Of a stretch of 64,000 nucleotides of DNA, positions 9,004 to 41,964 are shown piece after piece; positions within the stretch are counted from its first letter, which is position 1; each line of letters begins with the position of its first letter. The DNA is from Candidatus Omnitrophota bacterium (GTDB lineage: Bacteria; Omnitrophota; Gorgyraeia; JABMRN01; RBG-13-46-9): the NCBI GenBank assembly GCA_013203315.1, contig JABMQJ010000001.1:16382-80381 (forward strand). The letters are read 5' to 3'. Under the pieces are notes generated by a model. That model saw nothing but the letters and a program-made list of their open reading frames with translations. It was not told the origin of the DNA and did not search any database. Both the position numbers and the translations under genes were made by a program.

Positions 9004-9906
9004 TTATTTTTTGCGCGACAGAAAACTAAAGGCGTTTAAAAGCGCCTTGGACCCTTCTCCCGCCGCTATAATTATTTGTTTTGCCGGTATGTCGGTAACG
9101 TCTCCGGCAGCAAAGATGCCGGTAACGTTTGTCTCGTTAGAAGAATTTATCTTGATCTCGCCTTTTTCATTCTTATCCAGCTCTTTGGCAAAGTCGGAAT
9201 TCGGCATGAGCCCGATTTCTACAAAAATACCCTGCAGGGTAAGCGTTTTTTCTTTCGCTTTCTCTTTTATCTTTATGCCGGTAACCATTTTATCACCAAT
9301 GACTTCGGTCACACGGGTATCGTTTAAGATAGTCACGTTTTCGGCTCCTTCAACCTTGTCCTGCATGATTTTATCCCCGGTAAGCTCCGGGGTAATGTTT
9401 ATAAGGTGAACGTGCTTCGCTATTTTCATAAGTTGAAGGGTTGCGTCTAGGCCGGCATTCCCGCCGCCTATGACCGCTACGTCCTTTCCCGCAAAAATGG
9501 GCCCGTCGCATGTGGCACAATACGTAACCCCTTTGTTCTTGAACTCTTTTTCTCCGGGAACACCAAGTTCTTTTGAATGCTTACCTGAGGCTACTATCGC
9601 GGTTTTAGTTTCATACACGTCTTTATTGGTTTTAATTGAAATCAGAGCGCCCTTCTTTTTTAGCTCCAAAACACCTTCTTCTTTTAAGGGGACCTTGTAT
9701 TTTTTCATGTGCTCTTCAAATTTCGATACCAGATTAGCACCCGTAATGAATTGATAGCCTGTAAAATTTTCTATGTCACCGCTCCAGGCGGTCTGTCCCC
9801 CGATATCCTTGGAAATAACCAAAAAATTAATTCTCTTGCGGGCCGCGTATACGCTTGCAGTTATGCCTGCGGGTCCTGCTCCTATTATTATGAGATCATA
9901 CACCAT
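9004..9906 (-). CDS. trxB: thioredoxin-disulfide reductase
   Basis: GAGPAG FAD motif, CATC redox-active disulfide and GGGNAG NADPH motif; 300 aa. Confidence 0.9.
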   Translation of the reverse strand: MVYDLIIIGAGPAGITASVYAARKRINFLVISKDIGGQTAWSGDIENFTGYQFITGANLVSKFEEHMKKYKVPLKEEGVLELKKKGALISIKTNKDVYETKTAIVASGKHSKELGVPGEKEFKNKGVTYCATCDGPIFAGKDVAVIGGGNAGLDATLQLMKIAKHVHLINITPELTGDKIMQDKVEGAENVTILNDTRVTEVIGDKMVTGIKIKEKAKEKTLTLQGIFVEIGLMPNSDFAKELDKNEKGEIKINSSNETNVTGIFAAGDVTDIPAKQIIIAAGEGSKALLNAFSFLSRKK

Positions 9907-14001: not shown

Positions 14002-14409
14002 CTATTTACCTTTTTTAATCAAGGATCCTATGCTAATTGATTTTAAATCGGATACTATGTGTTTCTGTATCATGTCCAATTTTCCTTTTAAGGCGCAGGT
14101 CCTGATGTGAGGGCACAGGCTTTTTTTGAAAATATGTTCGTTGCATTTTAAAGGCCCCTGGAATATTTTCATTACATCGGCAACGAATATCGCGCCGGCG
14201 GCGCGTGATAATTCAAAACCCCCGCCTTTTCCTTTATAGGATTTCAGGAGCCCCGACTTATTCATGCGCTGTAATATCTTCCGCAGGAAGGGGCGCGGAA
14301 TTTTCAAATCGCGCACCAGTTTCTTTACCGAAACTATGCTCTTTTTGCGCTTTGCGATATAGCAAAGCGCCCTTATCGCGTAATCAGTGTCTCGTGTAAC
14401 TAATTTCAT
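14002..14409 (-). CDS. Rrf2 family transcriptional regulator (IscR/NsrR-like)
   Basis: Rrf2 wHTH N-terminus (DYAIRALCYIA) and C-terminal Cys residues. Confidence 0.8.
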   Translation of the reverse strand: MKLVTRDTDYAIRALCYIAKRKKSIVSVKKLVRDLKIPRPFLRKILQRMNKSGLLKSYKGKGGGFELSRAAGAIFVADVMKIFQGPLKCNEHIFKKSLCPHIRTCALKGKLDMIQKHIVSDLKSISIGSLIKKGK

Positions 14410-16966: not shown

Positions 16967-16998
16967 AAATGATACCACTTTAGTATCATTATGTCAAG
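16967..16998 (-). promoter_or_regulatory. promoter (TTGACA-17-TATCAT on minus) overlapped by palindrome AATGATACC-N5-GTATCATT
   Basis: Minus strand reads CCCTTGACAtaatgatactaaagtggTATCATttagg...GGGAGGGAGAGCattATG. The palindrome covers the spacer and -10. The same operator recurs at 21785-21807. Confidence 0.5.
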
Positions 16999-20295: not shown

Positions 20296-20915
20296 TTCGC
20301 CGATTTTTTATTTTTCTTTAGATCCCTAACAAGACGAAACAATTCAAGCGGTGTGTCAACATCATACCACTTATCCAAAAGAGCTACTTTTTTCTTAAGG
20401 CGCTTTGCCTTTTTAAGAGTGTCGCCCAACACCTCTTGAGAGCTCCATTTTATATTACTAAAGAGGGCACCACAAGGCTTTTTAAGTCCTATCAGGTAAT
20501 ACCCACCGTCACGGCTCGGCCCCAATACGAGGTCGTTTTTCTCGAGCTTGCGGAATGCTTTTTTAACGAGATCGGAAGGCAGGTTAGGGGCATCCGAACC
20601 GATAATAAGCGTTTTCGAATCCTCGTCTTTCGAGGCGTTCCTGAAAGCATTGTGCATTCTCCGGCCGAGATCTTTCCCCTTTTGCCTGTAGAATTTAAAG
20701 CGCGGCGCTATTTTTTTAAGGCTTCCGGGATTTTTTGATCTTGAATCATAAGCCATTATCCTCCGGTCGCATTTCACGCTTTTTGCAAGGTTCACGGTGT
20801 CTTTTAAAAAAGCCTTATATAAATCCACGCGATCCGTATCAGAGAGAAAGCTCGATAGTCTTGTTTTTATATCGTGTTTTTTCGGTTCTTTCGCGAAAAT
20901 GACTAAATTCTTCAT
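20268..20915 (-). CDS. DUF2064 family protein (TIGR04282-type; partner of a GT2)
   Basis: Motifs IFAKEPKKHDIKTRL and DGGYYLIG; paired with the upstream GT2 as in the TIGR04282/TIGR04283 gene pairs. Confidence 0.7.
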   Translation of the reverse strand: MKNLVIFAKEPKKHDIKTRLSSFLSDTDRVDLYKAFLKDTVNLAKSVKCDRRIMAYDSRSKNPGSLKKIAPRFKFYRQKGKDLGRRMHNAFRNASKDEDSKTLIIGSDAPNLPSDLVKKAFRKLEKNDLVLGPSRDGGYYLIGLKKPCGALFSNIKWSSQEVLGDTLKKAKRLKKKVALLDKWYDVDTPLELFRLVRDLKKNKKSAKWTRRFLKI

Positions 20916-21586
20916 CTCAAATCTTCATACAGATCTTTTATTTTATCAAGCGGGAATTTCAGGCAGTGTAATAACGTTACGTAATTATGTAGTAATATGG
21001 TGCTAAGCACTCCCTTTTTCTCCCATCTTCTCGGAGAAACGCTAACCTTGTTGCATAACACAACGGTTCTGCCTGACCTTCGCAACTTTCTAGTGAAAAG
21101 CACGTCCTCCATGATCGGGACTTCGGGGAAACCTTTAAGTTTTAAGAATTTATCTTTTTTTGTAAATATTGCCTGATCACCGTAAAAGACTTTAGTAGCC
21201 CTGGCTCTTAAGTTACCCTGCATTTCAAGTATCCTATATATCAGTCCTTTTCTATCTATCCTTTGCGTAAGGCAACCGCCTACACAACTGCTATTTTTTA
21301 ATCGTTTTTCAACGGCCGCGACTGTTCTGGGAGAAATTACATTATCGGCGTGTAAGAATAGGAGGATATTGCTTTCGGCGTGCCCTGCCCCACAATTCAT
21401 CTGGAGGGCACGGCCCTTGCCGGTGCGCACTACTTTGCCATAAACCTTAGCGACTTCTACACTTCTGTCAGAGCTACCGCCGTCTACAAAGATGAGCTCC
21501 GCTTTTTCGGCAAGCCTGCGAAACCCGGGCAGGTTCTTTGACAGGATCTTTTCTTCGTTATATATGGGAATAATTATGCTAACCAT
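20912..21586 (-). CDS. family 2 glycosyltransferase (TIGR04283-like)
   Basis: Motifs VSIIIPIYNEE and VDGGSSD. The ATG at ~21586 is preferred over the GTG at 21598. Confidence 0.75.
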   Translation of the reverse strand: MVSIIIPIYNEEKILSKNLPGFRRLAEKAELIFVDGGSSDRSVEVAKVYGKVVRTGKGRALQMNCGAGHAESNILLFLHADNVISPRTVAAVEKRLKNSSCVGGCLTQRIDRKGLIYRILEMQGNLRARATKVFYGDQAIFTKKDKFLKLKGFPEVPIMEDVLFTRKLRRSGRTVVLCNKVSVSPRRWEKKGVLSTILLHNYVTLLHCLKFPLDKIKDLYEDLR

Positions 21587-21655
21587 GTCCCCTAACACTT
21601 CGTGGGGACAGATCTCTCATCAAGCATGCTTAACAAGATGAGGAGATCCGTCCCC
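21587..21655 (-). promoter_or_regulatory. 5' leader alternative hairpins upstream of the GT2 gene
   Basis: A long inverted repeat, GGGGACGGATCTCCTCATC...GATGAGAGATCTGTCCCC, lies on the minus strand. Its 3' arm GTCCCC can instead pair with GGGGAC, which overlaps the GT2 SD and ATG. Confidence 0.4.
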
Positions 21656-21672
21656 ATATTTTTTCGGGCAGT

Positions 21673-21756
21673 TTAGAGTCTTACCCGGGACGATCTACTG
21701 CAGCCTTCGTCACAATGTGCTACAGGGCGTAACATGTACCTAATTGTAATTTGCAT
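21673..21756 (-). CDS. candidate leader peptide / uORF (27 aa)
   Basis: A strong SD (AAGGAGGGA) sits 7 nt upstream of ATG; peptide MQITIRYMLRPVAHCDEGCSRSSRVRL. It lies between the promoter at 21785-21814 and the leader hairpin. Confidence 0.3.
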   Translation of the reverse strand: MQITIRYMLRPVAHCDEGCSRSSRVRL

Positions 21757-21784
21757 CTTAATCCCTCCTTTTTAGTTCTGTATT

Positions 21785-21814
21785 AATGATACCTAATAGG
21801 TATCATTCTGTCAA
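21785..21814 (-). promoter_or_regulatory. promoter (TTGACA-17-TATCAT) with 11-1-11 perfect palindrome AATGATACCTA-A-TAGGTATCATT
   Basis: Minus strand reads CTCTTGACAgaatgatacctattaggTATCATtaat. The -35 overlaps the cusA stop codon. This is the same operator family as at 16967-16990. Confidence 0.5.
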
Positions 21815-24800
21815 GAGCTTTTTTTAAGCTCTTTCTCTTTCAGCCAGGCGTATAAGACCGGGACCAGTATTAGGTTGGCTAGGGTTGCGGTGACGAGTCC
21901 TCCTACAAGGGGCGATGCCATCGGCTTCATGACCTCAGAACCTGTCCCCGTCGATAGCATTACAGGCATTAGCGCTATGACTGTAGTCGTCGCGGTCATC
22001 ATTGCCGGTCTTAAACGTAATAGACAACCTTCGATTACTGTCTTACGTATGTCTTCTACTGTTTTCGGTAGTTTTTTCTTAAAGAGATTATCCAGTGTTG
22101 AAAGCAGTACGACCGCGTTGTCCGTGGCAACACCAAACAGGGCTATGAACCCTACCCATACGACAGTGGAAAATTTGAATCCCAGTAAGAATAAAAGTAT
22201 TACCCCTCCCGTAAGCGCTACGGGAATTCCCGTAGAGAGAATAAGAAGCGACTTAACGTTCCTAAACGCTATGTAGAGCAGGATCATGATTACGCCCAGG
22301 CATATTAAAAGTGACGGGATAAGCCTTTTTCTTGATTCCATCTCTGACTCAAACTGGCCTGACCAGGAAACATAATATCCCGACGGAAGCTTTATTTCTC
22401 CTTTTTTAATCTTTTCATCCACGGCCCTTTGCGCATTTTTTACGAAGTCTATAAGACCTACCTTGTCCTGATCAACGTTCACAAAAATTCTCGCGTATGA
22501 AAGCGTATTTTCCGAGTTGATAACGGCGGGGCCGGGAACGCGTTTCAGTTCGGCTATCTGCGCCAGCGGAATATGCTCCCCGCCGGATGTAGGAATAAAA
22601 ATTCTCTTAAGCGCTTCCGGATTGTCGCGTAACTCACGCATGTATCTTACGCGAACCGGATAACGCTCTCTTCCTTCAACGGTTGTAGTAATATTCATGC
22701 CGCCTATCGCGGTCATGATGACATGTTGAATGTCCCGGACGTTTATGCCGTATCTTGCAGCGGCCTCTCTATCTATTTCAATTTCGAAATAGGGCCTGTT
22801 CGATATGCGTTCGGCATAGGGGCTCACCGCGCCTTTTACCTTGGATACGACAGCCTCTATCTCGGTTGCGATCTCGACTATTTTATTAAGGTCCGGCCCG
22901 AAAACCTTGATACCTACGGGTGTTTGTATACCCGTAGCTAACATGTCTATCCTATTCCTTATGGGCTGAGTCATTATCGGGCTTACACCGGGCATACGCG
23001 TTTTTTCCTGTATTTCCAGTATGAGTTTCTCGCGCGTCATGCCCCTTCGCCAGAATTTTTTGTCTTTAAGATTAATAATTGTCTCTATCATTGCTACAGG
23101 CGCCGGGTCTGTCGCGGTTTCCGCGCGGCCAAGCTTACCCACGACCTGCTTTACCTCATTTGGGAATTCCTTTTTAATGATGATATCCTGCGTTCTCATT
23201 ACATCCATTACCTGCGTGAGAGACGCCCCCGGCAGAAGAACGGGCATGAAAAGAAGGTCCCCTTCATTTAAAGGCGGCATGAATTCCTGTTTTATCATGG
23301 AAGCGAATATTCCGCCCAATAGCAAAAGCGCGACTGTTATTATTATAATTTTTTGCTTATTTTTTAACGCCCAGCTGATCGTGGGTAAATAGTGCTTACG
23401 AAGATTACGCGAAGTAGCATTTTTATCAGGGTCCTGCAATTTTCCCCTTAAAAAATAATAACAAAGCGTCGGAAGAAGCGTAAGCGCGATTACCGCGGCG
23501 CCCACCATGACAAATGTCTTCGTAAAGGCAAGCGGCCTGAAAAGCTTGCCTGCCTGTCCTGTCAGAACAAAAACCGGCAGAAACCCTACAATAGTCGTAA
23601 GAAGAGCGAAAAGAACGGGCTTCCCTACTTCCTTGGCGCCGTCTATGCAGACGTCGAGTCTTTCTTCGGGCGCGAGACTATTTGCGCCCTTTTCTTTTCT
23701 TCTATCTACAATTCTTCTATAAATGTTTTCAACCAGCACACAACCCGAATCAACCATTATGCCTATGGCGATGGCGATACCGCCAAGCGACATTATGTTG
23801 GCATCCACGCCAAAGAGGCGCATGAGAATAAATGCGATCAATATGCCTACGGGCAGGACGATCGCTATGGCAGCGCTTGCCAGGAAGTGCGCGAGAAATA
23901 CCAGGATAACAAATACTGTTATTATAATTTCCTGTATAAGAGCGGTCTTAAGCGTATCAATAGAGCGCATGATAAGCCCTGTTCTGTCATAAAACGGTAC
24001 TATTTTAACACCGGGAGGCAGGCCCACGGATAGCTCTTCGATTTTTTCCTTTATGTCCTTTATTACTTTAAGCGGATTCTCACCGTAACGCATGAGAATC
24101 ACACCGCCTGTTACCTCTTTTCCTTCCTTGTCAAGGGCGCCCCTCCTGAATTCAGGGCCGATTGTCACCGTGGCTATGTTTTTTACATAAATAGGGGTGC
24201 CATTTTTCTCATCAATTACTATGTTTTCTATGTCGTCTGTGTTTTTTATGAAACCGAGGCCCCTTACTACAAATTCGGTCCCGCCTTCTTCAAAGACCTT
24301 GGCCCCTACGTCAATATTGGAGGCTTCTACCGCTTTTATTACCTCGTGAATCCTGACGTCATGCGCGAGCAGCTTATTTGGGTCTACGTCTATTTGATAT
24401 TGCTTTACATGACCGCCTACTGAAGCGACTTCTGATACGCCCTTTACGGCATTAAGCTGATACCTTATATACCAGTCCTGGATCGAACGCAACTCATCCA
24501 GGCTGTGACCCTCGCCTTCAACCGTATACCAGAAAATCTGGCCGAGCGCCGTTGCGTCAGGCCCTAAAGTGACAGAGACATCACTCGGGATACCCCTTTT
24601 CGCAAAATCAAGCCTTTCTAAAACGCGTGTCCTGGCCCAGTAAAAATCTGTTCCGTCCTCAAAGATCATGTTTACCAGGCCAAAGCCAAAAGCTGACGTG
24701 GAACGTACAACTTTTATATTGGGCGTTCCCATGAGCCCTGTCGTCAAAGGATATATAACCTGGTCTTCCACATCTTTAGGGCTTCTGCCTGGCCAATCCG

Positions 24801-24951
24801 CATAAACTATTATCTGAAGCTCGCCTATATCCGGTATAGCGTCCACAGGGGTTTCGCGCATGGAGTGAAACCCCCAGATCATGAGTAGTATGAAAACTGC
24901 TATAACAAGAAACCGGTTCCTAAGACAGGCTTCGATAATTTTATTTATCAT
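21811..24951 (-). CDS. cusA: CusA/CzcA-family heavy-metal efflux RND transporter
   Basis: 1046 aa with 12 TM helices and large periplasmic loops; HME-RND family. Confidence 0.9.
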   Translation of the reverse strand: MINKIIEACLRNRFLVIAVFILLMIWGFHSMRETPVDAIPDIGELQIIVYADWPGRSPKDVEDQVIYPLTTGLMGTPNIKVVRSTSAFGFGLVNMIFEDGTDFYWARTRVLERLDFAKRGIPSDVSVTLGPDATALGQIFWYTVEGEGHSLDELRSIQDWYIRYQLNAVKGVSEVASVGGHVKQYQIDVDPNKLLAHDVRIHEVIKAVEASNIDVGAKVFEEGGTEFVVRGLGFIKNTDDIENIVIDEKNGTPIYVKNIATVTIGPEFRRGALDKEGKEVTGGVILMRYGENPLKVIKDIKEKIEELSVGLPPGVKIVPFYDRTGLIMRSIDTLKTALIQEIIITVFVILVFLAHFLASAAIAIVLPVGILIAFILMRLFGVDANIMSLGGIAIAIGIMVDSGCVLVENIYRRIVDRRKEKGANSLAPEERLDVCIDGAKEVGKPVLFALLTTIVGFLPVFVLTGQAGKLFRPLAFTKTFVMVGAAVIALTLLPTLCYYFLRGKLQDPDKNATSRNLRKHYLPTISWALKNKQKIIIITVALLLLGGIFASMIKQEFMPPLNEGDLLFMPVLLPGASLTQVMDVMRTQDIIIKKEFPNEVKQVVGKLGRAETATDPAPVAMIETIINLKDKKFWRRGMTREKLILEIQEKTRMPGVSPIMTQPIRNRIDMLATGIQTPVGIKVFGPDLNKIVEIATEIEAVVSKVKGAVSPYAERISNRPYFEIEIDREAAARYGINVRDIQHVIMTAIGGMNITTTVEGRERYPVRVRYMRELRDNPEALKRIFIPTSGGEHIPLAQIAELKRVPGPAVINSENTLSYARIFVNVDQDKVGLIDFVKNAQRAVDEKIKKGEIKLPSGYYVSWSGQFESEMESRKRLIPSLLICLGVIMILLYIAFRNVKSLLILSTGIPVALTGGVILLFLLGFKFSTVVWVGFIALFGVATDNAVVLLSTLDNLFKKKLPKTVEDIRKTVIEGCLLRLRPAMMTATTTVIALMPVMLSTGTGSEVMKPMASPLVGGLVTATLANLILVPVLYAWLKEKELKKSS

Positions 24952-24966
24952 GATACAACTCCTCGC

Positions 24967-26199
24967 CTAGTGCTGATGCACCGGCGGTTTCTTCTCTTCG
25001 GCGCCTATTGACCCGCCATAAGCTGAGGCAGCGACACCGCTAATTTGGCTCTGTGAATCAATAAGGAAATTGGCCTTGGTCACGACAAGCTCGCCTTCGA
25101 CGAGGCCCTTTAACACAGGATAGAACTTTCTTTCTCTGCCGTCCACCAGAGCTCTTGCTTCCGGGCCGATAACAACGAGTCGGCCTTCATATTTTCCGTC
25201 TCCTACTTCAAGCCACACGATCTTTCGCGTGCCGGTATCAAGCACAGCGCTCTTAGGAATAGCAAGAACCTCATGCTCTCCTTCGGCGCCCATGTACATT
25301 CCCATGATAACCAAATCAACGTACATCCCCGGTTTTAGTTTAAGATCTGCGTTTTCGACTTCGGCTCTGAATTTGATCGAACGCGTCTTGGAATTTAACA
25401 CAGGATCTATTGAAGATATAACGCCCTGAAATTCTTCGCCCGGGATACCGGCGGCTATAACCTTTACTTTTTCTCCGACTTTTATCCAGGCCAATTCGTA
25501 CTCGTATATATCCCCGTAAATCCACATCTTCTTTTCCGGTAAAATAAGATTCGTATGAACCTTTTTCGTCTTTTCCAATTCCTTTATCTGTTCGGCGCTT
25601 AGGCCAAGCAACTTTAGTTTTCTCCTTGAGGATTCCACTAAATTCGCGGTTCTTTCTTTAATCTCTGGTATATTGCCTTCAGATATTTTCTCAAGGGAGC
25701 GAACCGCGGAAATAAATTCCTCTTCTGCGATGGCAAGTTGCGGGTCATAGGCTACCTTGCCTACGGTGCGTAGCTCTTTGTAAAGATGAAGCTTCCCTAT
25801 TGGCTCTGCTTTGACACCGGCCAGACGAAGCTGGTCTCCTTTTATTTTGACGCTGCTCACAACACCTTTTAAGCTATCCGCTTCCGCTTTCGATATTTTT
25901 TTAAGATCCATGCCGCATATAGGGCAGGTCATGCCTTCTGCGTCCTTCATGAGAAAAACGTGTTCTGCCCCTTCCATGCCGCATCCGTAATAATTGAGGC
26001 TCTCTTCGGCTTCCTCTTTGTATACAGGAATAAGTTTCATGTTGCAAATAGGGCAATTCACGCTGCCTTTGTCATACTCCTCCGGAGACACCCTCACACT
26101 CGGATGCATGCCGCAGGTATAGTATTCAATATCGTCGGCCCCGGCGTAGGTAACAATGGATGCTAACAACATAATTACAATAATAATTCGATACTTCAT
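24967..26199 (-). CDS. cusB: RND efflux periplasmic adaptor (CusB-like) with N-terminal metal-binding repeats
   Basis: N-terminal repeats YYTCGMHPSV, CPICNM, YYGCGMEGAEH, CPICGM, followed by a membrane-fusion-protein beta-barrel domain. Confidence 0.8.
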   Translation of the reverse strand: MKYRIIIVIMLLASIVTYAGADDIEYYTCGMHPSVRVSPEEYDKGSVNCPICNMKLIPVYKEEAEESLNYYGCGMEGAEHVFLMKDAEGMTCPICGMDLKKISKAEADSLKGVVSSVKIKGDQLRLAGVKAEPIGKLHLYKELRTVGKVAYDPQLAIAEEEFISAVRSLEKISEGNIPEIKERTANLVESSRRKLKLLGLSAEQIKELEKTKKVHTNLILPEKKMWIYGDIYEYELAWIKVGEKVKVIAAGIPGEEFQGVISSIDPVLNSKTRSIKFRAEVENADLKLKPGMYVDLVIMGMYMGAEGEHEVLAIPKSAVLDTGTRKIVWLEVGDGKYEGRLVVIGPEARALVDGRERKFYPVLKGLVEGELVVTKANFLIDSQSQISGVAASAYGGSIGAEEKKPPVHQH

Positions 26200-26218
26200 T
26201 TTATTTTCCTCCCGGTCG

Positions 26219-27481
26219 TTATAAATCTCGGCCTACTACCCTTTCCAGATACGCGATTGATTTCTCGTAATCTACTATAGCCTTATAATAAGCGAGCTTT
26301 GTCTTAAGAAGCACTCTCTCGGAATCAAGCCAGTTTAAAAAGTCTACCTTGCCCGCTTCATAGGCTGTCTTAGCGGCATTGAATGCCTGCTCTGTCTGCG
26401 GGACAAGCGCTGTTTTATACAAACTTACGATCTCTTTGTAAGTGTTTATCTTATAATAAACATCCTCCACTTCATATATAACGTTATTTTTCACGTCCTC
26501 GAAGTTTTCCCTGCTCGCGCGCAAGGATGCGGATTTTTCTTTTAGCTCGGCCACCTGCTTATCAAGCCAGATTGGTATGTGAACGGCAAATGTTGTCATC
26601 CAGGCGTCCTGGCCGTCGTCCGGAAGGGTCGTAGTATCATCGCCTACCTGGATGTAATCAAAACCAAATGTGAAGTCCGGAAGAAAATTAAGCCCCGCTA
26701 AAGACTTCTCGTATTTGGCTCTTTCTATGTTAATATTCGCTGCGAGCAATTCCTGCCTGCTCGTGCCGGCCAGATTATGCAAACTGTCTAAGGTATAATT
26801 GAACTTATCTAACTCTATGTCTTTTACCTTCCCCATCATAACCACGTTAGGCCTGCTAAGCAACGCGTTCAACTTGGCGGCGAGGCTTTTTCTGTGCTGT
26901 CTTAATTTAAACAGCTTATCTATTAATTTTGAAATCTCAACCTGGGCCTTGATAACATCCTGCTGCGGCGCATGAGCTACCTCGAACTTTTTTCCCGCTA
27001 CCTTTTCAAGGTTACTTAAGACACCTTTCTCCTCCTCGGTTATGTCAATCGCCCTGTCCACCCAGAAAATATCATAATAGACAAACTTTACGTCTTTTAT
27101 AATTTCGCGCTTTGTGGCTTCGTACTTCTCCCTCAGCACATCAGCCTTTTTAAACTCTGCCCTACCCTTAAGATGGAGCTTCCCGGGAAAAGGAACGCTT
27201 TGCGATACGCCGTACTTATGCTTCTGCGGGCCCACCTTTGTTTCAACGCTTTCACCGAAATACGTATACCGCGCCGTAGGGTCCGGAAGCACCGAAACCT
27301 GCTTTATCCTATATGTTGCAGCCTTCCAATTCTCATACGCCGCCTGAACACGAGGATTATTGTCTATAGCCTCGTTTATAAGAGCATCGAGGTCGCCGCC
27401 AGGAACTCCTTCTGCATGGATGTGACCTGTGGCGCTTGCAACAAAAGCGACGATTATAAACACAGTAAAAAATAAACGCAT
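26219..27481 (-). CDS. TolC-family outer membrane efflux protein (CusC-like)
   Basis: Signal peptide plus two outer-membrane efflux protein (OEP) repeats; 420 aa. Confidence 0.8.
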   Translation of the reverse strand: MRLFFTVFIIVAFVASATGHIHAEGVPGGDLDALINEAIDNNPRVQAAYENWKAATYRIKQVSVLPDPTARYTYFGESVETKVGPQKHKYGVSQSVPFPGKLHLKGRAEFKKADVLREKYEATKREIIKDVKFVYYDIFWVDRAIDITEEEKGVLSNLEKVAGKKFEVAHAPQQDVIKAQVEISKLIDKLFKLRQHRKSLAAKLNALLSRPNVVMMGKVKDIELDKFNYTLDSLHNLAGTSRQELLAANINIERAKYEKSLAGLNFLPDFTFGFDYIQVGDDTTTLPDDGQDAWMTTFAVHIPIWLDKQVAELKEKSASLRASRENFEDVKNNVIYEVEDVYYKINTYKEIVSLYKTALVPQTEQAFNAAKTAYEAGKVDFLNWLDSERVLLKTKLAYYKAIVDYEKSIAYLERVVGRDL

Positions 27482-27825: not shown

Positions 27826-27915
27826 TCAAGGGCTGGCGCTCACTATTTTTGCGGGTTTTACCCTACGGAATCAGCTGGTATTGGCCTGCGGCTTGGCACT
27901 TTCGCCGGAGCTCTT
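27826..27915. repeat. conserved ~90-bp divergent-promoter element, copy N1 (csoR / nifS intergenic)
   Basis: GTCAAGGG..CAC.ATTTTTGCGGGT..CCCTACGGAAT..GGTATTGGC.TGCGGCTTGGCA.TT..CGGAGC is about 80% identical to the copy at 35225-35345. The left end supplies the minus-strand -35 TTGACA for csoR (TTGACA-18-TATACT). Confidence 0.5.
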
Positions 27916-29832: not shown

Positions 29833-29892
29833 AATATTATTCTATTTTTGATTTTTATTATAAAGAAGCTTATAACGCGGTAGGGTTTTGGA

Positions 29893-29920
29893 TAGGCACT
29901 CTTAAGTGTGCCCTGCTTAC
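29893..29920. repeat. REP-like hairpin element, copy 1 (AGGCAC-TCTTAAGT-GTGCCCT-GCTTAC)
   Basis: Lies between convergent nifU and the 29987-30304 ORF. Near-identical to copy 2. Confidence 0.5.
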
Positions 29921-29986
29921 TTGAAAAATACAAAATAAGATGGCTCTACTTGAATTATTTAAACAAATAGAGCCATCCCGAATGCT

Positions 29987-30304
29987 TTATTTCTTATTTC
30001 CTAAAAGAAATTCCGGATTCTTAATTATTGGGCCATATTCAGGGAACGGAAAAGTAACTGTTTCAAACACTCCGCAAAGAACTCTTCCGCCAAATTTGAA
30101 AATCCCACCTAATGGTCCCCACGTTATGGCACCAAGAATTCCATCCTTCTCATACCCATCTTGGATTCCATTAAGTATTTCAAGCGGGCTTGTAACGATG
30201 TTTGTCACACCTCTGTAAAGTTTTTTGGCGGCTAGATCAGCATAAGCTGCGGTAGCGCTAAATAACATTACACCGATAAGAAGCAGGATAATTAGCTTTT
30301 TCAT
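29987..30304 (-). CDS. small secreted protein (signal peptide), hypothetical
   Basis: MKKLIILLLIGVMLFSATAAYA signal peptide; Gly-rich; 105 aa. Confidence 0.4.
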   Translation of the reverse strand: MKKLIILLLIGVMLFSATAAYADLAAKKLYRGVTNIVTSPLEILNGIQDGYEKDGILGAITWGPLGGIFKFGGRVLCGVFETVTFPFPEYGPIIKNPEFLLGNKK

Positions 30305-30374
30305 TTTTTTACCTCCTTATTTTAAATATAGTATACCCAATGAAAATCAATACTGCAAATATACTTCAGTTATC

Positions 30375-30410
30375 CACAGGGTAGGGCACTCTTAAGTGTG
30401 CCCTGCTTGC
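30375..30410. repeat. REP-like hairpin element, copy 2 (CACAGGGTAGGGCAC-TCTTAAGT-GTGCCCT-GCTTGC)
   Basis: Overlaps the 3' end of the tautomerase gene. The stop codon TAA lies inside the hairpin loop (CTTAAG). Confidence 0.5.
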
Positions 30411-30595
30411 TTTCTGTCGCAAATTAACTGGCCGCCGACTCCAACGTTTTCCGGTGCATTTTCCTTGATTACCGCTACAATAACCGCGGGAGGTAACTTA
30501 TATGCCTTTACTGCTGCTTCAGTCACTTCTTTGATTAAAGCTCGTTTCACCTCTAAATCTTTTATCTTTGGTCCTTCCACTGTAATATTAGGCAT
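30392..30595 (-). CDS. 4-oxalocrotonate tautomerase family protein
   Basis: 67 aa, starts MPNITVE with the catalytic Pro1 after Met; beta-alpha-beta tautomerase fold. Confidence 0.7.
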   Translation of the reverse strand: MPNITVEGPKIKDLEVKRALIKEVTEAAVKAYKLPPAVIVAVIKENAPENVGVGGQLICDRKQAGHT

Positions 30596-30624
30596 TCTTC
30601 CCCCTTTTTTGGATTTTTACTCTT

Positions 30625-30691
30625 GTGCCATTTCAGAATCTGAACTCCTGTCTGCCGGCAGGTAGACAGGCTATTTTTGAAAATGGTTCAC
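30625..30691. repeat. intergenic repeat family, copy A (GC palindrome plus conserved core ..TTCAGATTCTGAAAtGG..)
   Basis: Plus strand reads GTGCCATTTCAGAATCTGAACTCCTGTCTGCCGGCAGGTAGACAGGCTATTTTTGAAAATGGTTCAC. It is an imperfect ~65-bp palindrome, about 30 nt upstream of the tautomerase ATG. Confidence 0.6.
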
Positions 30692-30747
30692 TGTCCTCAA
30701 TTTTAACGGTGTTTAAGTGGGTATACAGGGTGAGGATATGCTATGGC

Positions 30748-31173
30748 TCAGTCTACCTGATGCGCAGTCAAGAACATAGACTTCTCGAGAACAGTGAAAA
30801 AATCCTGATAAGACTCCGGATTATCGACAGCCCTAAGCCCAAATTGAGCATTTGCCCTAACCAATAGTTGCGTTTCTCCTCTGGGCCTTACCGTAACAGT
30901 CATCTTTAATAAAGTATGCCTTGTAAATTTTGATGCTGTTACAGAGCCCAAGCTTAAATCTGCTCTATCAATAACAAATTCTAAATCTTGAAGAGTGCTT
31001 ATTACTGTCCTAAGCATTTTTTTTCTATCGGTAGTATCAAAAGCCCTTGTTTGTATGCTACGCAATTGAACTTGGCTCTGTTCGGCATCAATTGTTCGCT
31101 GGGCAGTTGTTGTACAACCCGCTAAAGATAAAACGAAAAATAAAAGAAGAAGACCTCTTAACATTATTTTCAT
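30748..31173 (-). CDS. lipoprotein, hypothetical (paralog of 31170-31742)
   Basis: Lipobox LSLAGC. Shares the pattern Q.R..Q.R.F.T...L....LQD.EF..D...SLG.V.ASK with the adjacent gene. Confidence 0.5.
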   Translation of the reverse strand: MKIMLRGLLLLFFVLSLAGCTTTAQRTIDAEQSQVQLRSIQTRAFDTTDRKKMLRTVISTLQDLEFVIDRADLSLGSVTASKFTRHTLLKMTVTVRPRGETQLLVRANAQFGLRAVDNPESYQDFFTVLEKSMFLTAHQVD

Positions 31174-31742
31174 ATTTCCTGCCCTTCAAGGAATATTGCT
31201 TTTGATACTTTGTCGAAGAAACCTTGGTATAATTCTGGTCCTTTCAAAGTCTCCAGTCTAGAAACGTTTCCCAGTCTGTTCCAGACAATTCTCTGAAAGG
31301 TAGTGCGGACGATTAATTTATTTCCTTCGGCGTTTAGCTTACTAACAACGGATACTCTAATTTTCTGCTCTTTATCAATATAGTCAAAAGCGTTTGTATT
31401 TGTGCCTGAGAGTGCGGCGAGGGCAACTGCTGCGGTTGCTGCCGCAACCTGAACTGCATCTGTTGCATCTCTACTTTTTGAAGCTACAACAAGCCCTAAT
31501 TCTGTTTCGCTATCGTCAAGCGTAAAGCCCATATCTTGAAGAGCACCGGCGCAGGCTGAGAGTACTTCTGCTTCGTTTATCGTTTCAAATTGCCGCATTT
31601 GTAACTGGCGTACTTGCAGACTGTCCTCTGATAGGGTAAATAATTTTTTAGGGGTGGTAGCAATACAACCTGTTATAGAAATGCACAAAACAAGGAGTGA
31701 CGGTAAGATAAAGTCTTTTTTTAATTTTGTAACTTTAAGCAT
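31170..31742 (-). CDS. lipoprotein, hypothetical (paralog of 30748-31173)
   Basis: Lipobox ISITGC; same domain pattern as the downstream paralog; 190 aa. Confidence 0.5.
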   Translation of the reverse strand: MLKVTKLKKDFILPSLLVLCISITGCIATTPKKLFTLSEDSLQVRQLQMRQFETINEAEVLSACAGALQDMGFTLDDSETELGLVVASKSRDATDAVQVAAATAAVALAALSGTNTNAFDYIDKEQKIRVSVVSKLNAEGNKLIVRTTFQRIVWNRLGNVSRLETLKGPELYQGFFDKVSKAIFLEGQEI

Positions 31743-31744
31743 AT

Positions 31745-32143
31745 TTAAAATTTAGAAGCGTGATATGCAAAATCTCTTACTTTGCCCTCATTGTCAAACT
31801 TGATAACAATGGTCAAGGTTCTCTGCGTAGTCGATTTTGCTCCGGCGGTCCCAGGTGTTAGAAATTTTAGACCGGCATTGCTATCCGAATATACTATATC
31901 AGTAGCTATTTTATCGTAGACCCATACTTCCCGTCGCTGCTCATCAGTGGTTACAACATTGGGAGAACCTAATGTCTCTACAACCTTCGATGAGGGCATT
32001 CCGATCAAAATTTCACGCTGGACTTTGCCCACAGTTATCCTATCCCCGGTATCATCCTGCACTTCTCTTCTATGATAACTAGCTGACGCACATCCCATTA
32101 AGAATATTAAAGAAACAACTACTATAATAAGTTTTTTATCCAT
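31745..32143 (-). CDS. lipoprotein with BamE/SmpA_OmlA-like motif
   Basis: Lipobox LMGC; GMPSSKVVETLGSPN resembles BamE-family motifs. Confidence 0.45.
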   Translation of the reverse strand: MDKKLIIVVVSLIFLMGCASASYHRREVQDDTGDRITVGKVQREILIGMPSSKVVETLGSPNVVTTDEQRREVWVYDKIATDIVYSDSNAGLKFLTPGTAGAKSTTQRTLTIVIKFDNEGKVRDFAYHASKF

Positions 32144-32176
32144 GATTCCCCCCTATTTTCATTAGTATTGTTTTAT

Positions 32177-32205
32177 ATTTTAGTCTTGCCGGTATTGAAT
32201 GTCAA
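32177..32205 (-). promoter_or_regulatory. sigma70-type promoter of the three-lipoprotein operon (TTGACA-17-TAAAAT)
   Basis: Minus strand reads cTTGACAttcaataccggcaagacTAAAATataaaac, about 35 nt upstream of the ATG at 32143. Confidence 0.6.
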
Positions 32206-32237
32206 GCCTATTTAGCGATTCTCTATCTGAACTACCC

Positions 32238-32300
32238 TTCGACCGTTTCAGAATCTAAATTCCTACCTAACGGTAGGCAGGCCGGCAGGTTATTTTTGAA
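32238..32300. repeat. intergenic repeat family, copy B
   Basis: Plus strand reads TTCGACCGTTTCAGAATCTAAATTCCTACCTAACGGTAGGCAGGCCGGCAGGTTATTTTTGAA. It abuts the arfB stop codon and lies upstream of the lipoprotein promoter. Confidence 0.6.
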
Positions 32301-32723
32301 TTAGAAGTCCTCGCTTTTTAAACCATGCCTTGAACGTAGTTTTTTCTTTTCCGCCCTCTTCTTTTTATTCCTAAGCATCTTTTCTTTTGCTCTGCGGGAT
32401 CGCCGGCGTTTTTGCCTTCTTATCTTTTCTATCCTTTTTCTTTCTTCCGAATGCCTTCCCAGTATGTGCGCTTCGATTTTGCCCGTGAGGCGCCTGCGCG
32501 CTATAAATCTATTTAAAGCCTGCGAGCGCTCTTCCTGGCATTTTACCTCTATGCCGGTCGGCCCATGCCTAAGATGCACGCAGGTAGATACCTTATTAAC
32601 ATTTTGACCGCCCTTTCCGCCTGAACGGACAAACCACTCCTCCATGTCCTGTTCGCGGATACCAAGCTTCCGCATCTTCGCCTTCAGGGCTTCTTCTTTA
32701 CTGCTGCTCACACCGAATTGCAT
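32301..32723 (-). CDS. arfB: alternative ribosome-rescue factor ArfB (peptidyl-tRNA hydrolase, GGQ motif)
   Basis: GGQ motif in [34 protein letters not shown], plus a basic C-terminal tail; 140 aa. Confidence 0.8.
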
Positions 32724-32736
32724 AATTGAAATCCAC

Positions 32737-32787
32737 TTTTCGACCGTTTAAGAATCTGAACTCCTGCCTGCCGGCTTTAAAGTAACA
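32737..32787. repeat. intergenic repeat family, copy C (truncated right half)
   Basis: Plus strand reads TTTTCGACCGTTTAAGAATCTGAACTCCTGCCTGCCGGC. On the minus strand the core ends 14-23 nt before the arfB ATG. Confidence 0.55.
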
Positions 32788-32796
32788 AATCGATCA

Positions 32797-33162
32797 CTAG
32801 GCGGAATAGACTAAGAGAGCTCCGAAAGCTAAGGCCAAAAGACTGATCAGGCGCATGGATAAAATAGGTTTTCCCTGCCACCAGTCAAGATAGGTATATA
32901 TCGATTTTGGTTTTATCACAAGTAAAAGCACACCCTTTATGATCGACCAGATACCAAGTACCTTAATCAGTAATACTATCCTGCACTGCGGGGCAGCAAT
33001 TAAAAAGACGATACCGAAAAGAAGTGCCAAAATACCGCCGACCTTTAGCCTTTTTTCATTTCTCCAGAACGCAATATATCCTTTTAAAGTATTTTTCCTT
33101 ACTAAAAAAAGGATTCCAATAACCATAATAATTACACCAAAAAGCCTGACAACCATAACCAT
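32797..33162 (-). CDS. hypothetical small membrane protein
   Basis: 121 aa with 3-4 TM helices. Confidence 0.4.
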   Translation of the reverse strand: MVMVVRLFGVIIMVIGILFLVRKNTLKGYIAFWRNEKRLKVGGILALLFGIVFLIAAPQCRIVLLIKVLGIWSIIKGVLLLVIKPKSIYTYLDWWQGKPILSMRLISLLALAFGALLVYSA

Positions 33163-33183
33163 AAGTACCTCCCTTTTTTACTC

Positions 33184-33242
33184 TTCGACCATTTCAGAAT
33201 CTGAACTACTGTCTGCTAGCAGGTAGGCTCTACTTTGTCTTA
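33184..33242. repeat. intergenic repeat family, copy D
   Basis: Plus strand reads TTCGACCATTTCAGAATCTGAACTACTGTCTGCTAGCAGGTAGGCTCTACTTTGTCTTAA. It overlaps the stop codon of the upstream zinc-ribbon gene. Confidence 0.55.
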
Positions 33243-33734
33243 AAACCCAAGAAACATTAGCCACCTGGCACGCCTTCCCAGTAAATCAGCTCGTTCAACC
33301 CTGTTAATATCTCGCAGTAATTTATCACGCGTTTCCGTTATGCCACGTTCAGTAATTTTTAGCTTCTCATATTCTATTCCGCCGGCTTTAATAAACTCAA
33401 CGGCTTTCTGCAATTCTCCTTCATCGAAAAACGTCCCATGTTTTTTACACTTATCGACAACAATTCCCGAGTGATGCATGTAGTTTTTGCGCCACATCAA
33501 TCTACTACAACGGGGGCATTTGCAATACTTTACTTTTTCCGTACGCCCCAAAGGTTTATATACCTTGTGTAAATCACGTAGCTCACTCACGGTAAAGACT
33601 TCCGGAATTATCTTCAATACCTGTTTTTCTTCGAACTTATCTACCCATACACCTTTACATTTTGGACAAATGTCGGTTTCGATACCGTTTTCCTTGAACA
33701 CCTTCATTTCAATATCACATTTGGGACATTTCAT
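33240..33734 (-). CDS. double zinc-ribbon (zf-TFIIB-like) protein
   Basis: Two CPxC...CPxCxGxWxD modules (CPKCDIEM...CPKCKGVWVD; CKCPRCSRLM...CKKHGTFFDEGEL). Confidence 0.5.
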   Translation of the reverse strand: MKCPKCDIEMKVFKENGIETDICPKCKGVWVDKFEEKQVLKIIPEVFTVSELRDLHKVYKPLGRTEKVKYCKCPRCSRLMWRKNYMHHSGIVVDKCKKHGTFFDEGELQKAVEFIKAGGIEYEKLKITERGITETRDKLLRDINRVERADLLGRRARWLMFLGF

Positions 33735-33807
33735 TTTCCTCTCCTATATAAACTTCTCCCTGCCTATTTAAAATCGCGGACGTTATAAAGCTACCGCCGG
33801 GACAGGC

Positions 33808-34473
33808 CTAAGATCGTGCTTTGCCCCGCCCCATACCTTCCCGGAGGCCAACCACCAGAAATAACATTCCGACTATCTGGATAAGATGAAAAATACCGTT
33901 GTTATCAAATTTCCAAATAAGCCGGGCAGCAATATCCTTGTTAGCTTGAAAAATTGCGGCGATGATTGTGAAGAGAACCCCGATCGCTATTAATCCGGCG
34001 CCGCCGAGTCGCTTTCGCAAGGCCAACCAGCTGTAAGCGATCAAAACAAAGGTCATGGTAATTGCCTCGTAAATAATAAAAACCAGAAAAGTTCTCGGAA
34101 AAAGCAGGTTCACCGCGTAAAAGGCTACCCCAATCGCAAGCATGACCGGAAGCATCCGACGGACAGCAGCGCGGCCCAGCATGTCGTAGATGGCCCCAAG
34201 GATAAATAAAACAACCACGAAACCCAATGCCAAAAAGAGTGGTTGCCACAGAATATTCTCTAATGCCTCGGACATTTTAAGGCCATGCAGTAATGCCCCC
34301 GATGCGGACGAAAAGGTGACCAGCCCAAAGAACCATGACCAGATATTTGTTCTCTGCATATCACGCTGCTTGGTTCGGCGCAGGTAAAAGAGGCAAGCCG
34401 CGGCAACTAAGGCTAAAACCGCATCTGTCACGGCTGTCGTTTGCTCTATTGGTATATTAGTGATTTCCAGCAT
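33808..34473 (-). CDS. hypothetical polytopic membrane protein
   Basis: 221 aa with about 6 TM helices. Confidence 0.4.
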   Translation of the reverse strand: MLEITNIPIEQTTAVTDAVLALVAAACLFYLRRTKQRDMQRTNIWSWFFGLVTFSSASGALLHGLKMSEALENILWQPLFLALGFVVVLFILGAIYDMLGRAAVRRMLPVMLAIGVAFYAVNLLFPRTFLVFIIYEAITMTFVLIAYSWLALRKRLGGAGLIAIGVLFTIIAAIFQANKDIAARLIWKFDNNGIFHLIQIVGMLFLVVGLREGMGRGKARS

Positions 34474-34509
34474 TAAATTCGTAACCTTAGACCGTTTTCG
34501 ATAAAATGA

Positions 34510-35148
34510 TTATCTATCTATCAGTTTACTGACCGTCTCCATGCAATGATTCACAATCTCTTTAATAATATTTAACATATCAAGATATCGGACCTTTGCC
34601 CATTCATCACAAATTCCCTTTGCTGACCTATCTATATGGTTAAGGCGACTTTTTTCTATTAATGCGTAGAGGGATGATTTATTTTTTAAAATATTTTTGC
34701 CTAACTTCCTATCATTAGTCTTCACCGCCACAATTGTAACTGACAAAATCTCTTCTATATTGTTACATAGCTCCTTATATTCTTGCAATGCTTTGTCACT
34801 AAATAACAATTTTTCACTAACTTTATACTCAATTCGTTCTACTAAATCTACACATAGATCTCCCATCCTCTTAATTGCGCCGATAATGCTTACCAAATCA
34901 ATGACTATTTTTTTAGCTTTGCCTGATGATTTCTTTTTGGAAATTTCGATTGCTAAGGTAGTTAAATTAGTATAAGCTTCATTAATTTTTGTTTCATTCT
35001 TAAGCACCTGATCTAAGAGCTTGATATCGTTCTTCATCAAACCATTAAAGTTAGTACGAAACATTATTTGAACCCGTTCTAACATTTCTATGGTCTCTTG
35101 TCTTAATGAAGCTATTTTTCTTAATTCAGCTTTATTTAATTTGGCCAT
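34510..35148 (-). CDS. PhoU-like domain protein
   Basis: 212 aa all-helical protein with two PhoU-like repeats (ETKINEAYTNLTTLAIEI; IEYKVSEKLL...). Confidence 0.45.
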   Translation of the reverse strand: MAKLNKAELRKIASLRQETIEMLERVQIMFRTNFNGLMKNDIKLLDQVLKNETKINEAYTNLTTLAIEISKKKSSGKAKKIVIDLVSIIGAIKRMGDLCVDLVERIEYKVSEKLLFSDKALQEYKELCNNIEEILSVTIVAVKTNDRKLGKNILKNKSSLYALIEKSRLNHIDRSAKGICDEWAKVRYLDMLNIIKEIVNHCMETVSKLIDR

Positions 35149-35162
35149 AGTTTTACTCCCTC

Positions 35163-35230
35163 TTTTACCGTCTCAGAATCTAAAACCTGCCTACTACTAA
35201 TATTGTAGGCTTGGCGTTGTTCAAAGTCAA
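35163..35230. repeat. intergenic repeat family, copy E (degenerate)
   Basis: Plus strand reads TTTTACCGTCTCAGAATCTAAAACCTGCCTACTACTAATATTGTAGGCTTGG. It is in the 5' leader of the PhoU-like gene, downstream of TTGACT-17-TACAAT. Confidence 0.5.
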
Positions 35231-35345
35231 GGGGCAAAAAAGTGACATTTTTGCGGGTACTGCCCTACGGAATGAGAGGGTATTGGCGTGCGGCTTGGCA
35301 TTTAACGACGGAGCCCTGCCAATACCCTCTCATTCCGTTGATTGG
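35225..35345. repeat. conserved divergent-promoter element, copy N2 (PhoU-like / nitroreductase intergenic)
   Basis: Shares the same conserved blocks as N1. It also contains a perfect 20-bp inverted repeat, CGGAATGAGAGGGTATTGGC...GCCAATACCCTCTCATTCCG. Confidence 0.5.
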
Positions 35346-35438
35346 CAGGGACTCGCAAAAATATGCTTTTATATTGAGGGGTTTTTTGTTATAATTTTAG
35401 TCATTCAAACCGATAAACTATCAAGAAGGAGGAAATCA

Positions 35439-36095
35439 ATGAAGATATTAATTTTAATAGTAGCGATGTGCATGATGGCAGCGAATGTGTTTGCCGAGGG
35501 GGATATGGCAACGCAGGCAAGTCCTTCGGTGACGATAAAACTTCCGACGCCCGAGACGAGCGGAGGCAAACCGTTGATGCAGGCGCTGAAAGATAGAAAA
35601 TCGAGTAGAAACTTTAGTGACAAGGAGTTACCACAGCAGGTATTATCCGACCTTTTGTGGGCAGCGTTCGGCATAAACAGGCCGGATTCAGGAATGCGCA
35701 CGGCACCCACAGCGCATAATATGCAGGAAATCTATATTTTTGTGGCAATGTCCAAAGGCCTTTATCTTTATGAACCAAAGCAGCATATATTGAAGCTGAT
35801 GCTAGCCGAAGATATACGCGCTGTAACCGGTATGCAGGAGTTTGTGGCAACAGCACCGGTGAACCTTATCTATGTGGCGGAATATTCCAAGATGGCCAAT
35901 ATAGGCAGTGAGAAAGACTTTTACTCAGCTACAGACACCGGATTTATTTCTCAGAATGTATATTTATATTGCGCATCGAAGGGCCTGGCAACAGTCGTAC
36001 GCGGCTGGGTAGACAGGAAAGCTCTGGGAAAAGCAATGAACCTACGCCCCGACCAGAAGATAATCCTTGCCCAGACGGTCGGGTACGAAAAATAA
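35439..36095 (+). CDS. nitroreductase-family protein with N-terminal signal peptide
   Basis: Starts at ATG after AAGGAGGAAATCA. MKILILIVAMCMMAANVFAEG signal peptide, then a nitroreductase fold (DLLWAAFGINR, TAPTAHNMQ). The ORF-track N-terminal extension is spurious. Confidence 0.7.
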   Translation: MKILILIVAMCMMAANVFAEGDMATQASPSVTIKLPTPETSGGKPLMQALKDRKSSRNFSDKELPQQVLSDLLWAAFGINRPDSGMRTAPTAHNMQEIYIFVAMSKGLYLYEPKQHILKLMLAEDIRAVTGMQEFVATAPVNLIYVAEYSKMANIGSEKDFYSATDTGFISQNVYLYCASKGLATVVRGWVDRKALGKAMNLRPDQKIILAQTVGYEK

Positions 36096-36107
36096 CGAAG
36101 AGTTATT

Positions 36108-36143
36108 CACAGGGCAGGGCGCTCTTGGGGGTGCCCTGCTTGC
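36108..36143. repeat. REP-like hairpin element, copy 3 (CACAGGGCAGGGCGC-TCTTGGGGG-TGCCCT-GCTTGC)
   Basis: Lies between the convergent nitroreductase and NYN genes. The 3' end abuts the NYN stop codon. Confidence 0.5.
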
Positions 36144-36643: not shown

Positions 36644-36655
36644 ATCCGTGAGTTA

Positions 36656-36693: not shown

Positions 36694-36721
36694 AGTGTAT
36701 TTAAATTATACCCCTAAAATA

Positions 36722-36768: not shown

Positions 36769-36775
36769 TCAAATT

Positions 36776-41950: not shown

Positions 41951-41964
41951 CCAGACATCTCCTT

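Follow-up and report, generated by a model that had tools for sequence, protein, structure and literature searches.

The subject of this work is the region upstream of a glycosyltransferase (GT2) gene in a 64,000-nt stretch of the Candidatus Omnitrophota contig JABMQJ010000001.1, referred to here as the window; all coordinates are positions in it, and all features of the locus lie on its (-) strand. The region begins with a sigma-70-type promoter (21786-21814) that matches 11 of the 12 consensus positions, with a -35 hexamer TTGACA at 21814-21809, a 17-nt spacer and a -10 hexamer TATCAT at 21791-21786. The TGA stop codon of cusA (21813-21811) falls within the -35 hexamer. The spacer and the -10 hexamer are spanned by a 21-bp palindromic operator (21786-21806), ATGATACCT-ATT-AGGTATCAT, which is also written ATGATACCTATTAGGTATCAT, with half-sites ATGATACC-N5-GGTATCAT; it occurs once in the window at up to three mismatches, where no occurrence is expected. 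Next come a Shine-Dalgarno sequence (SD), AAGGAGGG (21763-21770), and, 6 nt further on, the ATG of a small open reading frame of 27 codons, MQITIRYMLRPVAHCDEGCSRSSRVRL (21673-21756, with a TAA stop at 21675-21673). We call this the upstream ORF (uORF), and its relatives small ORFs (sORFs). A small hairpin and a large palindrome separate its end from the GT2 gene (20912-21586, TIGR04283 family, 224 aa), which is the first large gene of an operon with the order GT2 - TIGR04282/DUF2064 - DedA - 59-aa Zn-ribbon - FAD oxidoreductase - ArsS.

The first-pass annotation of this region had listed a strong SD, a 27-codon ORF downstream of an operator-controlled promoter, and two mutually exclusive hairpins, and had read them as a leader-peptide-dependent translational attenuator of the GT2 operon. 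All of the features that it listed are present in the sequence on the (-) strand, and the ORF with its SD is as it described. The results below point away from the attenuator and towards a conserved family of very small ORFs.

On the evidence of profile searches, the uORF is a member of a widespread, previously unannotated family of small ORFs that encode Cys/His peptides. The family was found by a metagenome scan with the peptide and by a profile search of 5.8 billion proteins, and further searches comprised an exhaustive profile search of 1.84 billion representatives and a scan of viral contigs. The exhaustive search returned 85 representative clusters at E <= 1e-3, all of them short and unnamed, and the source names returned for family members are in every case "hypothetical protein" or blank. 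Across the 85 clusters there is an invariant or near-invariant core of about 13 residues, (K/R)YMLRPVAHCxxGC, with a broader consensus of +[YWF][ML]LR[PAT][VI][AT][HR]C-x-x-G-C. On either side of this core the length varies freely, in the N-terminal lead-in as well as in the C-terminal tail, which runs from 0 to more than 40 residues with the frame shifting freely, and several members lack the second Cys. The family was defined by a short ORF with an SD, the pattern [KR][YWF][MLF]LR[PAT][VI][AT][HR]C-x-x-G-C and a basic N-terminal part. The window peptide has all of these (KGGIK-MQITIRYMLRPVAHCDEGC), and its full core aligns with 38 database members. No larger protein family with this motif was found in the same profile searches. 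Most members have fewer than 30 codons, which may be why gene callers have so far overlooked them; in the gene-call tables of the window's contigs there is no gene entry at the uORF position, and its 84 nt may lie under the callers' length cut-off.

Searches of Pfam and NCBIfam with the uORF peptide gave no match, and an Rfam scan of the leader at E <= 10 gave only chance matches (best E = 0.6-5, far under the gathering scores), so that no Rfam, Pfam or NCBIfam family covers either the ORF or the hairpin. Literature searches for the motif string, for Rrf2 together with a leader peptide, and for arsenosugar, ArsS and glycosyltransferase returned nothing relevant. It is worth adding that one ORF of 138 aa, P0193, repeats MLNPITHCSDGSKT, which is close to the family core, five times in tandem; the explanation may be a tandem repeat in the DNA or a precursor with several cores. 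There are also two sORF copies on the 2.28-Mb contig L100, at 5001-5186 and about 9050-9200, one of which adjoins IS3-type transposase genes and a group II intron reverse transcriptase; this duplication hints that the sORF unit can be duplicated or moved.

The uORF has the marks of a genuine coding ORF, as first proposed. Across the three GT2-linked lineages its ratio of non-synonymous to synonymous variation (pN/pS) is 0.17-0.29, compared with 0.17 for GT2; its core codons vary only synonymously, and its SD is strong, as are the SDs of all family members for which DNA is available. Codon entropy and protein alignments place the conserved core, YMLRPVAHCDEGC, at codons 7-19 (21700-21738). For the seven codons of LRPVAHC, 14 distinct loci give entropies of 1.93, 0 and 10.48 bits at codon positions 1, 2 and 3, respectively; the variation at first positions consists of UUR/CUN and CGN/AGR switches only, and third positions show four-fold variation. 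We regard this entropy pattern as a decisive coding signature, and by these comparisons selection acts on the sequence of the uORF peptide.

Some sORFs end right after the ...GC of the core, and these all stop at UGA (L094, 817-873; L095, 481-552; L113, about 1507-1560; fetched loci are given by their L numbers). In each of the three, a GC-rich terminator hairpin begins 6 nt past the UGA. The UGA is followed by AUU UAG in L094 and L095, other members end ...GCSI* or carry GCC at this place, and L113 has no nearby in-frame stop beyond the UGA. Selenocysteine insertion or stop-codon stalling at the UGA-ending members is speculation. For the window, a reading as selenocysteine with a selenocysteine insertion sequence (SECIS) was rejected: a bacterial SECIS calls for an in-frame UGA some 11 nt ahead of the hairpin, but there is no UGA in the uORF, the codon of Cys19 is UGC, and the GC-UGA relatives have ordinary terminators. 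Resemblances to boxA and to a PTP-loop (HCxxGxxR[ST]) were also set aside, the matching positions being variable across the family alignments, as was a sigma-54 promoter reading of TGGGCAC...TGC, in which the GG-to-GC spacing is 14 and not 10.

Attached to the ORF is a small hairpin, formed by the motif UCCCGGGUA-AGACUCUAAAC-UGCCCG (21665-21690), which is conserved in 12 loci. The predicted stem pairs 21687-21682 with 21670-21665 around an 11-nt loop that holds the uORF stop, at -7.9 kcal/mol. In general form the motif is UCCYGGGYA-N11(..AAAC)-UGCCC, with the potential for a stem of 5-6 bp in the 12 loci, and it starts 20-21 nt past the Cys15 codon in all of them except L107, where an insertion intervenes. 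It is kept where it is read in frame (as SWARR... or SRVRL*), where it is read in another frame (L092, L106) and where it lies after the stop (L097). In this alignment, which covers one clade, the small hairpin is conserved as nucleotides and not as codons, irrespective of the reading frame, and a hairpin structure is plausible. A chance match in L074 aside, every occurrence of the motif in 627 kb of fetched DNA is beside the sORF core. In L001, L110, L092 and L096 the 5-6-bp stem is followed by a U-tract (U6). The window has both the motif (21690-21665) and the operator (21806-21786) that define an Omnitrophota-type subclass of the family.

The view that the promoter is controlled by an operator also held up. 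The module TTGACA-(N2)-ATGATAC-N7-GTATCAT recurs, mostly before operons that contain an Rrf2 gene: there is a second site in the window, and at least eight independent loci carry it (the module loci are L001, L014, L045, L089, L096, L097, L101, L107, L109 and L110). The second window copy (TTGACAtaATGATACTAAAGTGGTATCAT; also given as ATGATACTAAAGTGGTATCAT) lies at 16969-16997 on the (-) strand, directly before a set of genes ordered Fer4/AF_0155 - ferritin - ... - Rrf2 - FNR-like, and has no sORF. Since a second copy of the operator is present, the window holds two promoters of one regulon. The Rrf2-family regulator gene of this set (14002-14409, (-)) is 61% identical to the Rrf2 gene of L089, which stands directly after an operator and sORF. 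Operator and Rrf2 gene occur together in the window, L089, L096, L097, L107 and L109, and on the basis of this co-occurrence the Rrf2 protein is presumed to bind the palindrome, which by context would be an IscR/NsrR-type Rrf2 site. The usual layout is operator - sORF - Rrf2, followed by genes such as Hcp, SufC/SufBD, Fer4, SOR and flavodiiron protein (FDP), as in L089, L096, L107/108 and L109. In L106 the order sORF-Rrf2 is kept, the sORF stop overlapping the GTG start of Rrf2, and the 130 nt that were read ahead of the core contain no operator motif. L101 has the order operator - sORF - rubredoxin - ferritin - FDP - SOR - rubrerythrins.

The genes near the sORF also include several connected with copper and other metals: L092/93 has a CsoR-like G6 operator and a YHS protein, L094 a P-type ATPase, and L106, L107 and L109 have YHS or ArsP. 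These neighbourhoods are consistent with a Cys/His peptide tied to metal or redox stress; the first-pass annotation had suggested a metal-responsive leader.

In the window itself, csoR-tolC-cusBA lies immediately upstream of the uORF promoter. A CsoR/RcnR-type repressor gene (PF02583; 27491-27832, (-)), with the promoter TTGACAtagggtaggggggtatggtatact, heads tolC-cusB-cusA (21811-27481, (-)); the G6 operator ahead of the L092/93 sORF is similar. This whole metal-efflux module is missing from the relative L001, in which nifS lies divergent beside the sORF promoter, and close lineages are therefore separated here by an insertion or a deletion. The window has two copies of a 57-nt element, at 27845-27901 and 35247-35338, with 86% identity. 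The former closely precedes the csoR promoter and has a homologous counterpart upstream of the L001 sORF promoter; the latter forms part of a perfect inverted repeat of 21 bp whose spacer is 30 nt. Dispersed repeats are found at 29878-42339, seven of the TTCGACCGTTTCAGAATCTGAA type and four of the GGGCACTCTTAAGTGTGCCCTGCTTGCT hairpin type.

The larger hairpin begins 17 nt past the uORF stop, as had been reported, although what had been described as a 19-bp interrupted stem is computed as 18 bp with one bulged C. It is a 52-nt near-perfect palindrome (21604-21655; GGGGACGGATCTCCTCATC) with a folding energy of -32.5 kcal/mol, and is a single copy in the window. An A-tract (21664-21656) precedes it, its loop holds AAGCATGCTT, and on the (+) strand it is followed by a T-run, ATATTTTTTC. 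Between it and the GT2 ATG (21586) the sequence is ACGAAGUGUUAGGGGAC. The element GGGGACA (21586-21592), proposed both as the SD of GT2 and as an alternative pairing partner for the palindrome, overlaps the GT2 start. Such a pairing is indeed possible, between UGUCCCC (21610-21604) and GGGGACA (21592-21586), with 7 bp and -11.8 kcal/mol, and the leader as a whole folds better than shuffled sequences (z = -3.0, with none of 200 shuffles equalling it).

A Candidatus Omnitrophica metagenome-assembled genome has a protein identical to this GT2, and the homologues of GT2 are likewise of 224 aa, which supports the ATG at 21586. GT2 is at least 88% identical in three lineages, represented by the window (and L005-L008), by L001-L004 and by L110. 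The promoter, the operator half-sites and the uORF are retained in all three. The two closest relatives, L001 and L110, in which GT2 is 88% identical, do not have the big hairpin. L001 reads ...UAAACUGCCCAUUUUUUAUCAUCCACACGAAGUGUUAGGGGACAUG, with GGGGAC present; L110 reads ...UAAACUGCCCGUUUUUUACCAUG, with the GT2 ATG 17 nt past the uORF stop and with neither GGGGAC nor an SD. Both have a sense-strand T-run at the place equivalent to the palindrome. About 40 further Omnitrophota GT2 loci (43-65% identity) have neither uORF nor hairpin, and their upstream genes differ. A uORF upstream of GT2 was therefore rejected as a general feature of TIGR04283, being confined to the three lineages with at least 88% GT2 identity. 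In L045 (2460-2510), a distant Omnitrophota-like relative with 44% GT2 identity, an operator-promoter lies directly before GT2 with no sORF. Because the operator is there without the sORF, the link of the TIGR04283 operon to the regulon is older than the link of the uORF to GT2.

These comparisons bear directly on the attenuator of the first-pass annotation, in which the behaviour of ribosomes on the uORF would determine whether the big hairpin forms or whether GUCCCC pairs with GGGGAC and so covers the GT2 SD. It would be of the type of the erm, cat and cmlA attenuators (ErmCL, CatA86L), which resemble the locus in having a short leader ORF with its own SD and a gene start that can be drawn into a hairpin. 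In support of it, both pairings are available in the sequence and the uORF has the comparative signature of a translated leader. However, the big hairpin is private to one lineage, being absent from both closest relatives, one of which also lacks GGGGAC. As far as the hairpins go, the first-pass model is thereby contradicted by the standard of refutation that it set itself, and no relative offers a counterpart in which covariation could be sought. The energetics also run the wrong way: the big hairpin exceeds the alternative in stability by about 20 kcal/mol (-32.5 against -11.8 kcal/mol), and so by default the GUCCCC arm would be kept off the GT2 start, which is the opposite of erm-type systems, where the default state masks the ribosome-binding site (RBS) and the stalled ribosome overlaps arm 1 of the hairpin. 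The geometry fails as well. By the established geometry of ribosome footprints and toeprints, the leading edge of a ribosome lies about +16 from the first base of the P site. A ribosome terminating on the uORF, with the stop (17 nt from the hairpin) in its A site, would thus extend to about 21662 and leave a gap of 7 nt before the 5' arm, at 21655. Finally, GGGGAC ends 2 nt before the GT2 ATG, a poor spacing for an SD. Three of the four defining features of erm/cat control, namely default sequestration of the RBS, a stalled ribosome on arm 1 and conserved or covarying alternative hairpins, are thus lacking. The likeness is superficial, and we consider this explanation very improbable. In the minimum-free-energy fold the GT2 start pairs with uORF codons 7-12; this was judged fortuitous, as these codons vary synonymously and L110 has no GGGGAC.

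The palindrome itself would seem, from this distribution, to be a recent lineage-specific insertion that lies outside any conserved switch. Probably it does no more than separate translation of GT2 from that of the sORF, or is neutral. A role as an antisense terminator, or an origin as an inverted terminator, is possible, and more broadly the palindrome might have a function of its own as an antisense terminator, the remnant of an inverted attenuator-terminator, or an RNase III or stabiliser hairpin. Such a function would fit the hairpin and T-run on the (+) strand, the T-runs at the equivalent sense-strand place in L001 and L110, the terminators after the sORF in other family members, and L107, in which a hairpin-rich insertion of about 63 nt lies between the sORF core and the small hairpin (3155-3245), indicating that palindromic insertions enter such leaders in other lineages too. 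We nevertheless think it unlikely, given that there is no (+) strand gene or promoter pointing into the palindrome, that it is found in one lineage with no copies elsewhere, and that a neutral insertion explains it equally well. A reading as a dispersed repeat or miniature inverted-repeat transposable element was set aside, there being no second copy in the window or in the fetched loci that were searched except in the same-species contigs L005-L008. An origin by inversion or template switching was considered and dropped, three lineages being too few to resolve it.

The explanation that we favour, as a whole with modest confidence, is that the region forms the 5' leader of one of the operons in a regulon under an Rrf2-type repressor. 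Release of the repressor at the operator would be the main on/off control. As a tentative addition, to which we give slightly less than even weight, the small ORF would act in cis as a translated leader. Ribosomes on the sORF, which the invariant nascent peptide might slow or arrest on a thiol, metal or redox signal, would decide whether the small hairpin forms: one that paused with codons 15-19 in the P site would leave the hairpin free, and one that reached the stop, which in the window is in the loop, would melt it. Translation of the sORF would in this way adjust the read-through into the downstream genes, or the coupling of their translation to its own. A cis role is suggested by the conservation of some 13 internal residues while the flanks and the stop position drift, and by the presence of an RNA motif at a fixed distance from the core. 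It is suggested also by what follows in relatives, where there is either a hairpin and then a U-tract or a next start 17 nt past or overlapping the stop, and by the position of the short UGA-ending members 6 nt before a strong terminator (L094, L095, L113). There are several points on the other side. The binding of Rrf2 to the operator is taken from their co-occurrence. Covariation in the small hairpin is weak, with one compensatory change of G-C to A-U and some of U.G to C-G, and 32 of 500 shuffles equal its observed covariation score. In the window the small hairpin is followed by the A-tract and then the palindrome, so that it cannot terminate transcription there; in a test for a trp-type terminator, neither window hairpin had a sense-strand U-tract, the stem and U6 of L001, L110, L092 and L096 being a weak form of such an arrangement. 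Lastly, some members are found in settings that suit a cis-acting leader poorly: in L097 the sORF lies mid-operon, L095 is a stand-alone unit of promoter, sORF and terminator with a convergent gene downstream, and other members are in unrelated contexts, including contigs classed as viral.

These last settings favour a peptide acting in trans, and the main competitor of a cis-acting leader is accordingly a free Cys/His micropeptide of 17-27 residues, for example one that binds thiols or metals or is the partner of a conserved protein. It would simply be expressed along with the stress operons that its cistron opens, and the leader would have no cis role. It would account for selection on the peptide, for the 85 clusters in many contexts and for the recurrence of copper and metal genes beside the sORF (L092/93, L094, L106, L107 and L109, with cusCBA in the window). 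It accounts less well for the confinement of conservation to about 13 internal residues, for C-terminal tails that range from 0 to more than 40 residues in varying frame, and for the loss of the second Cys in several members, and it leaves the fixed-spacing nucleotide hairpin without explanation. To our knowledge, most trans-acting bacterial micropeptides are also unlike this peptide, which is short, basic and not hydrophobic. We judge a free micropeptide to be not much less likely than the cis-acting leader, though with odds clearly below even. At the other extreme, the apparent conservation of the peptide might in truth be that of an RNA structure, with the ORF untranslated. The small hairpin is indeed conserved as nucleotides, but the four-fold variation at third positions, the CGN/AGR and UUR/CUN switches, the complete absence of second-position variation, the conserved SD and start codon and the lack of any Rfam match make this hardly credible. 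We thus retain, at the strengths given, the regulon leader with a cis-acting sORF.

Among known systems, the arrest leaders (TnaC, SecM, SpeFL and MifM) offer an analogy to a cis-acting sORF. As in these, there is a conserved motif of about 13 residues with variable flanks, the conservation is of amino acids and not codons, and the ORF lies in the 5' leader of regulated genes and is followed at a fixed distance by an RNA element; the UGA stop of several members, with a terminator right behind it, recalls TnaC and ribosome-occluded terminators. There is, however, no sequence similarity, one sORF member is a stand-alone gene, and arrest on the sORF is proposed by analogy. The trpL, hisL and leuL leaders share the layout of the locus, in which a promoter is followed by a leader ORF, a hairpin (backed by a U-tract in L001, L110, L092 and L096) and the structural genes, but the sORF has two separated Cys codons instead of a run of regulatory codons, there is no antiterminator/terminator pair, and selection acts on the peptide itself. 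The operator resembles those of IscR, NsrR and RsrR, which are AT-rich inverted repeats of about 21 bp over the -10 hexamer and spacer of Fe-S, Hcp and oxidative-stress promoters, and which include the regulator's own operon among their targets, as here. The half-site ATGATACC was not matched to a verified published consensus, and the binding is presumed from co-occurrence. MntS and SgrS/SgrT are likewise very small ORFs co-regulated with a stress regulon, and the L094 and L095 units have the size of small-RNA genes; these show no homology to the sORF, whose peptide is shorter and has no conserved C-terminus.

An attenuator upstream of GT2 would have been a one-off case. A conserved family of micro-ORFs, missed by annotation pipelines, is more general, and in the barely cultured Omnitrophota its members lie repeatedly behind one operator and ahead of Rrf2 and genes for defence against oxygen, nitric oxide and metals and for Fe-S clusters. 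We suggest, with more doubt than confidence, that they may represent a new sensory class in Omnitrophota and other uncultured anaerobes, in which an invariant Cys/His nascent peptide or released micropeptide reports thiol, metal or oxidant status and, together with an RNA hairpin, controls operons headed by Rrf2. Should the peptide be a nascent-chain sensor, it would add a new arrest-type motif, whose input would probably be redox state or metal; as a free peptide, it would be among the smallest conserved soluble stress proteins. If Rrf2 binds the palindrome as presumed, the TIGR04283/ArsS gene set, from GT2 to ArsS, has in the lineage of the window been recruited into a regulon for oxidative stress, Fe-S clusters and metals.

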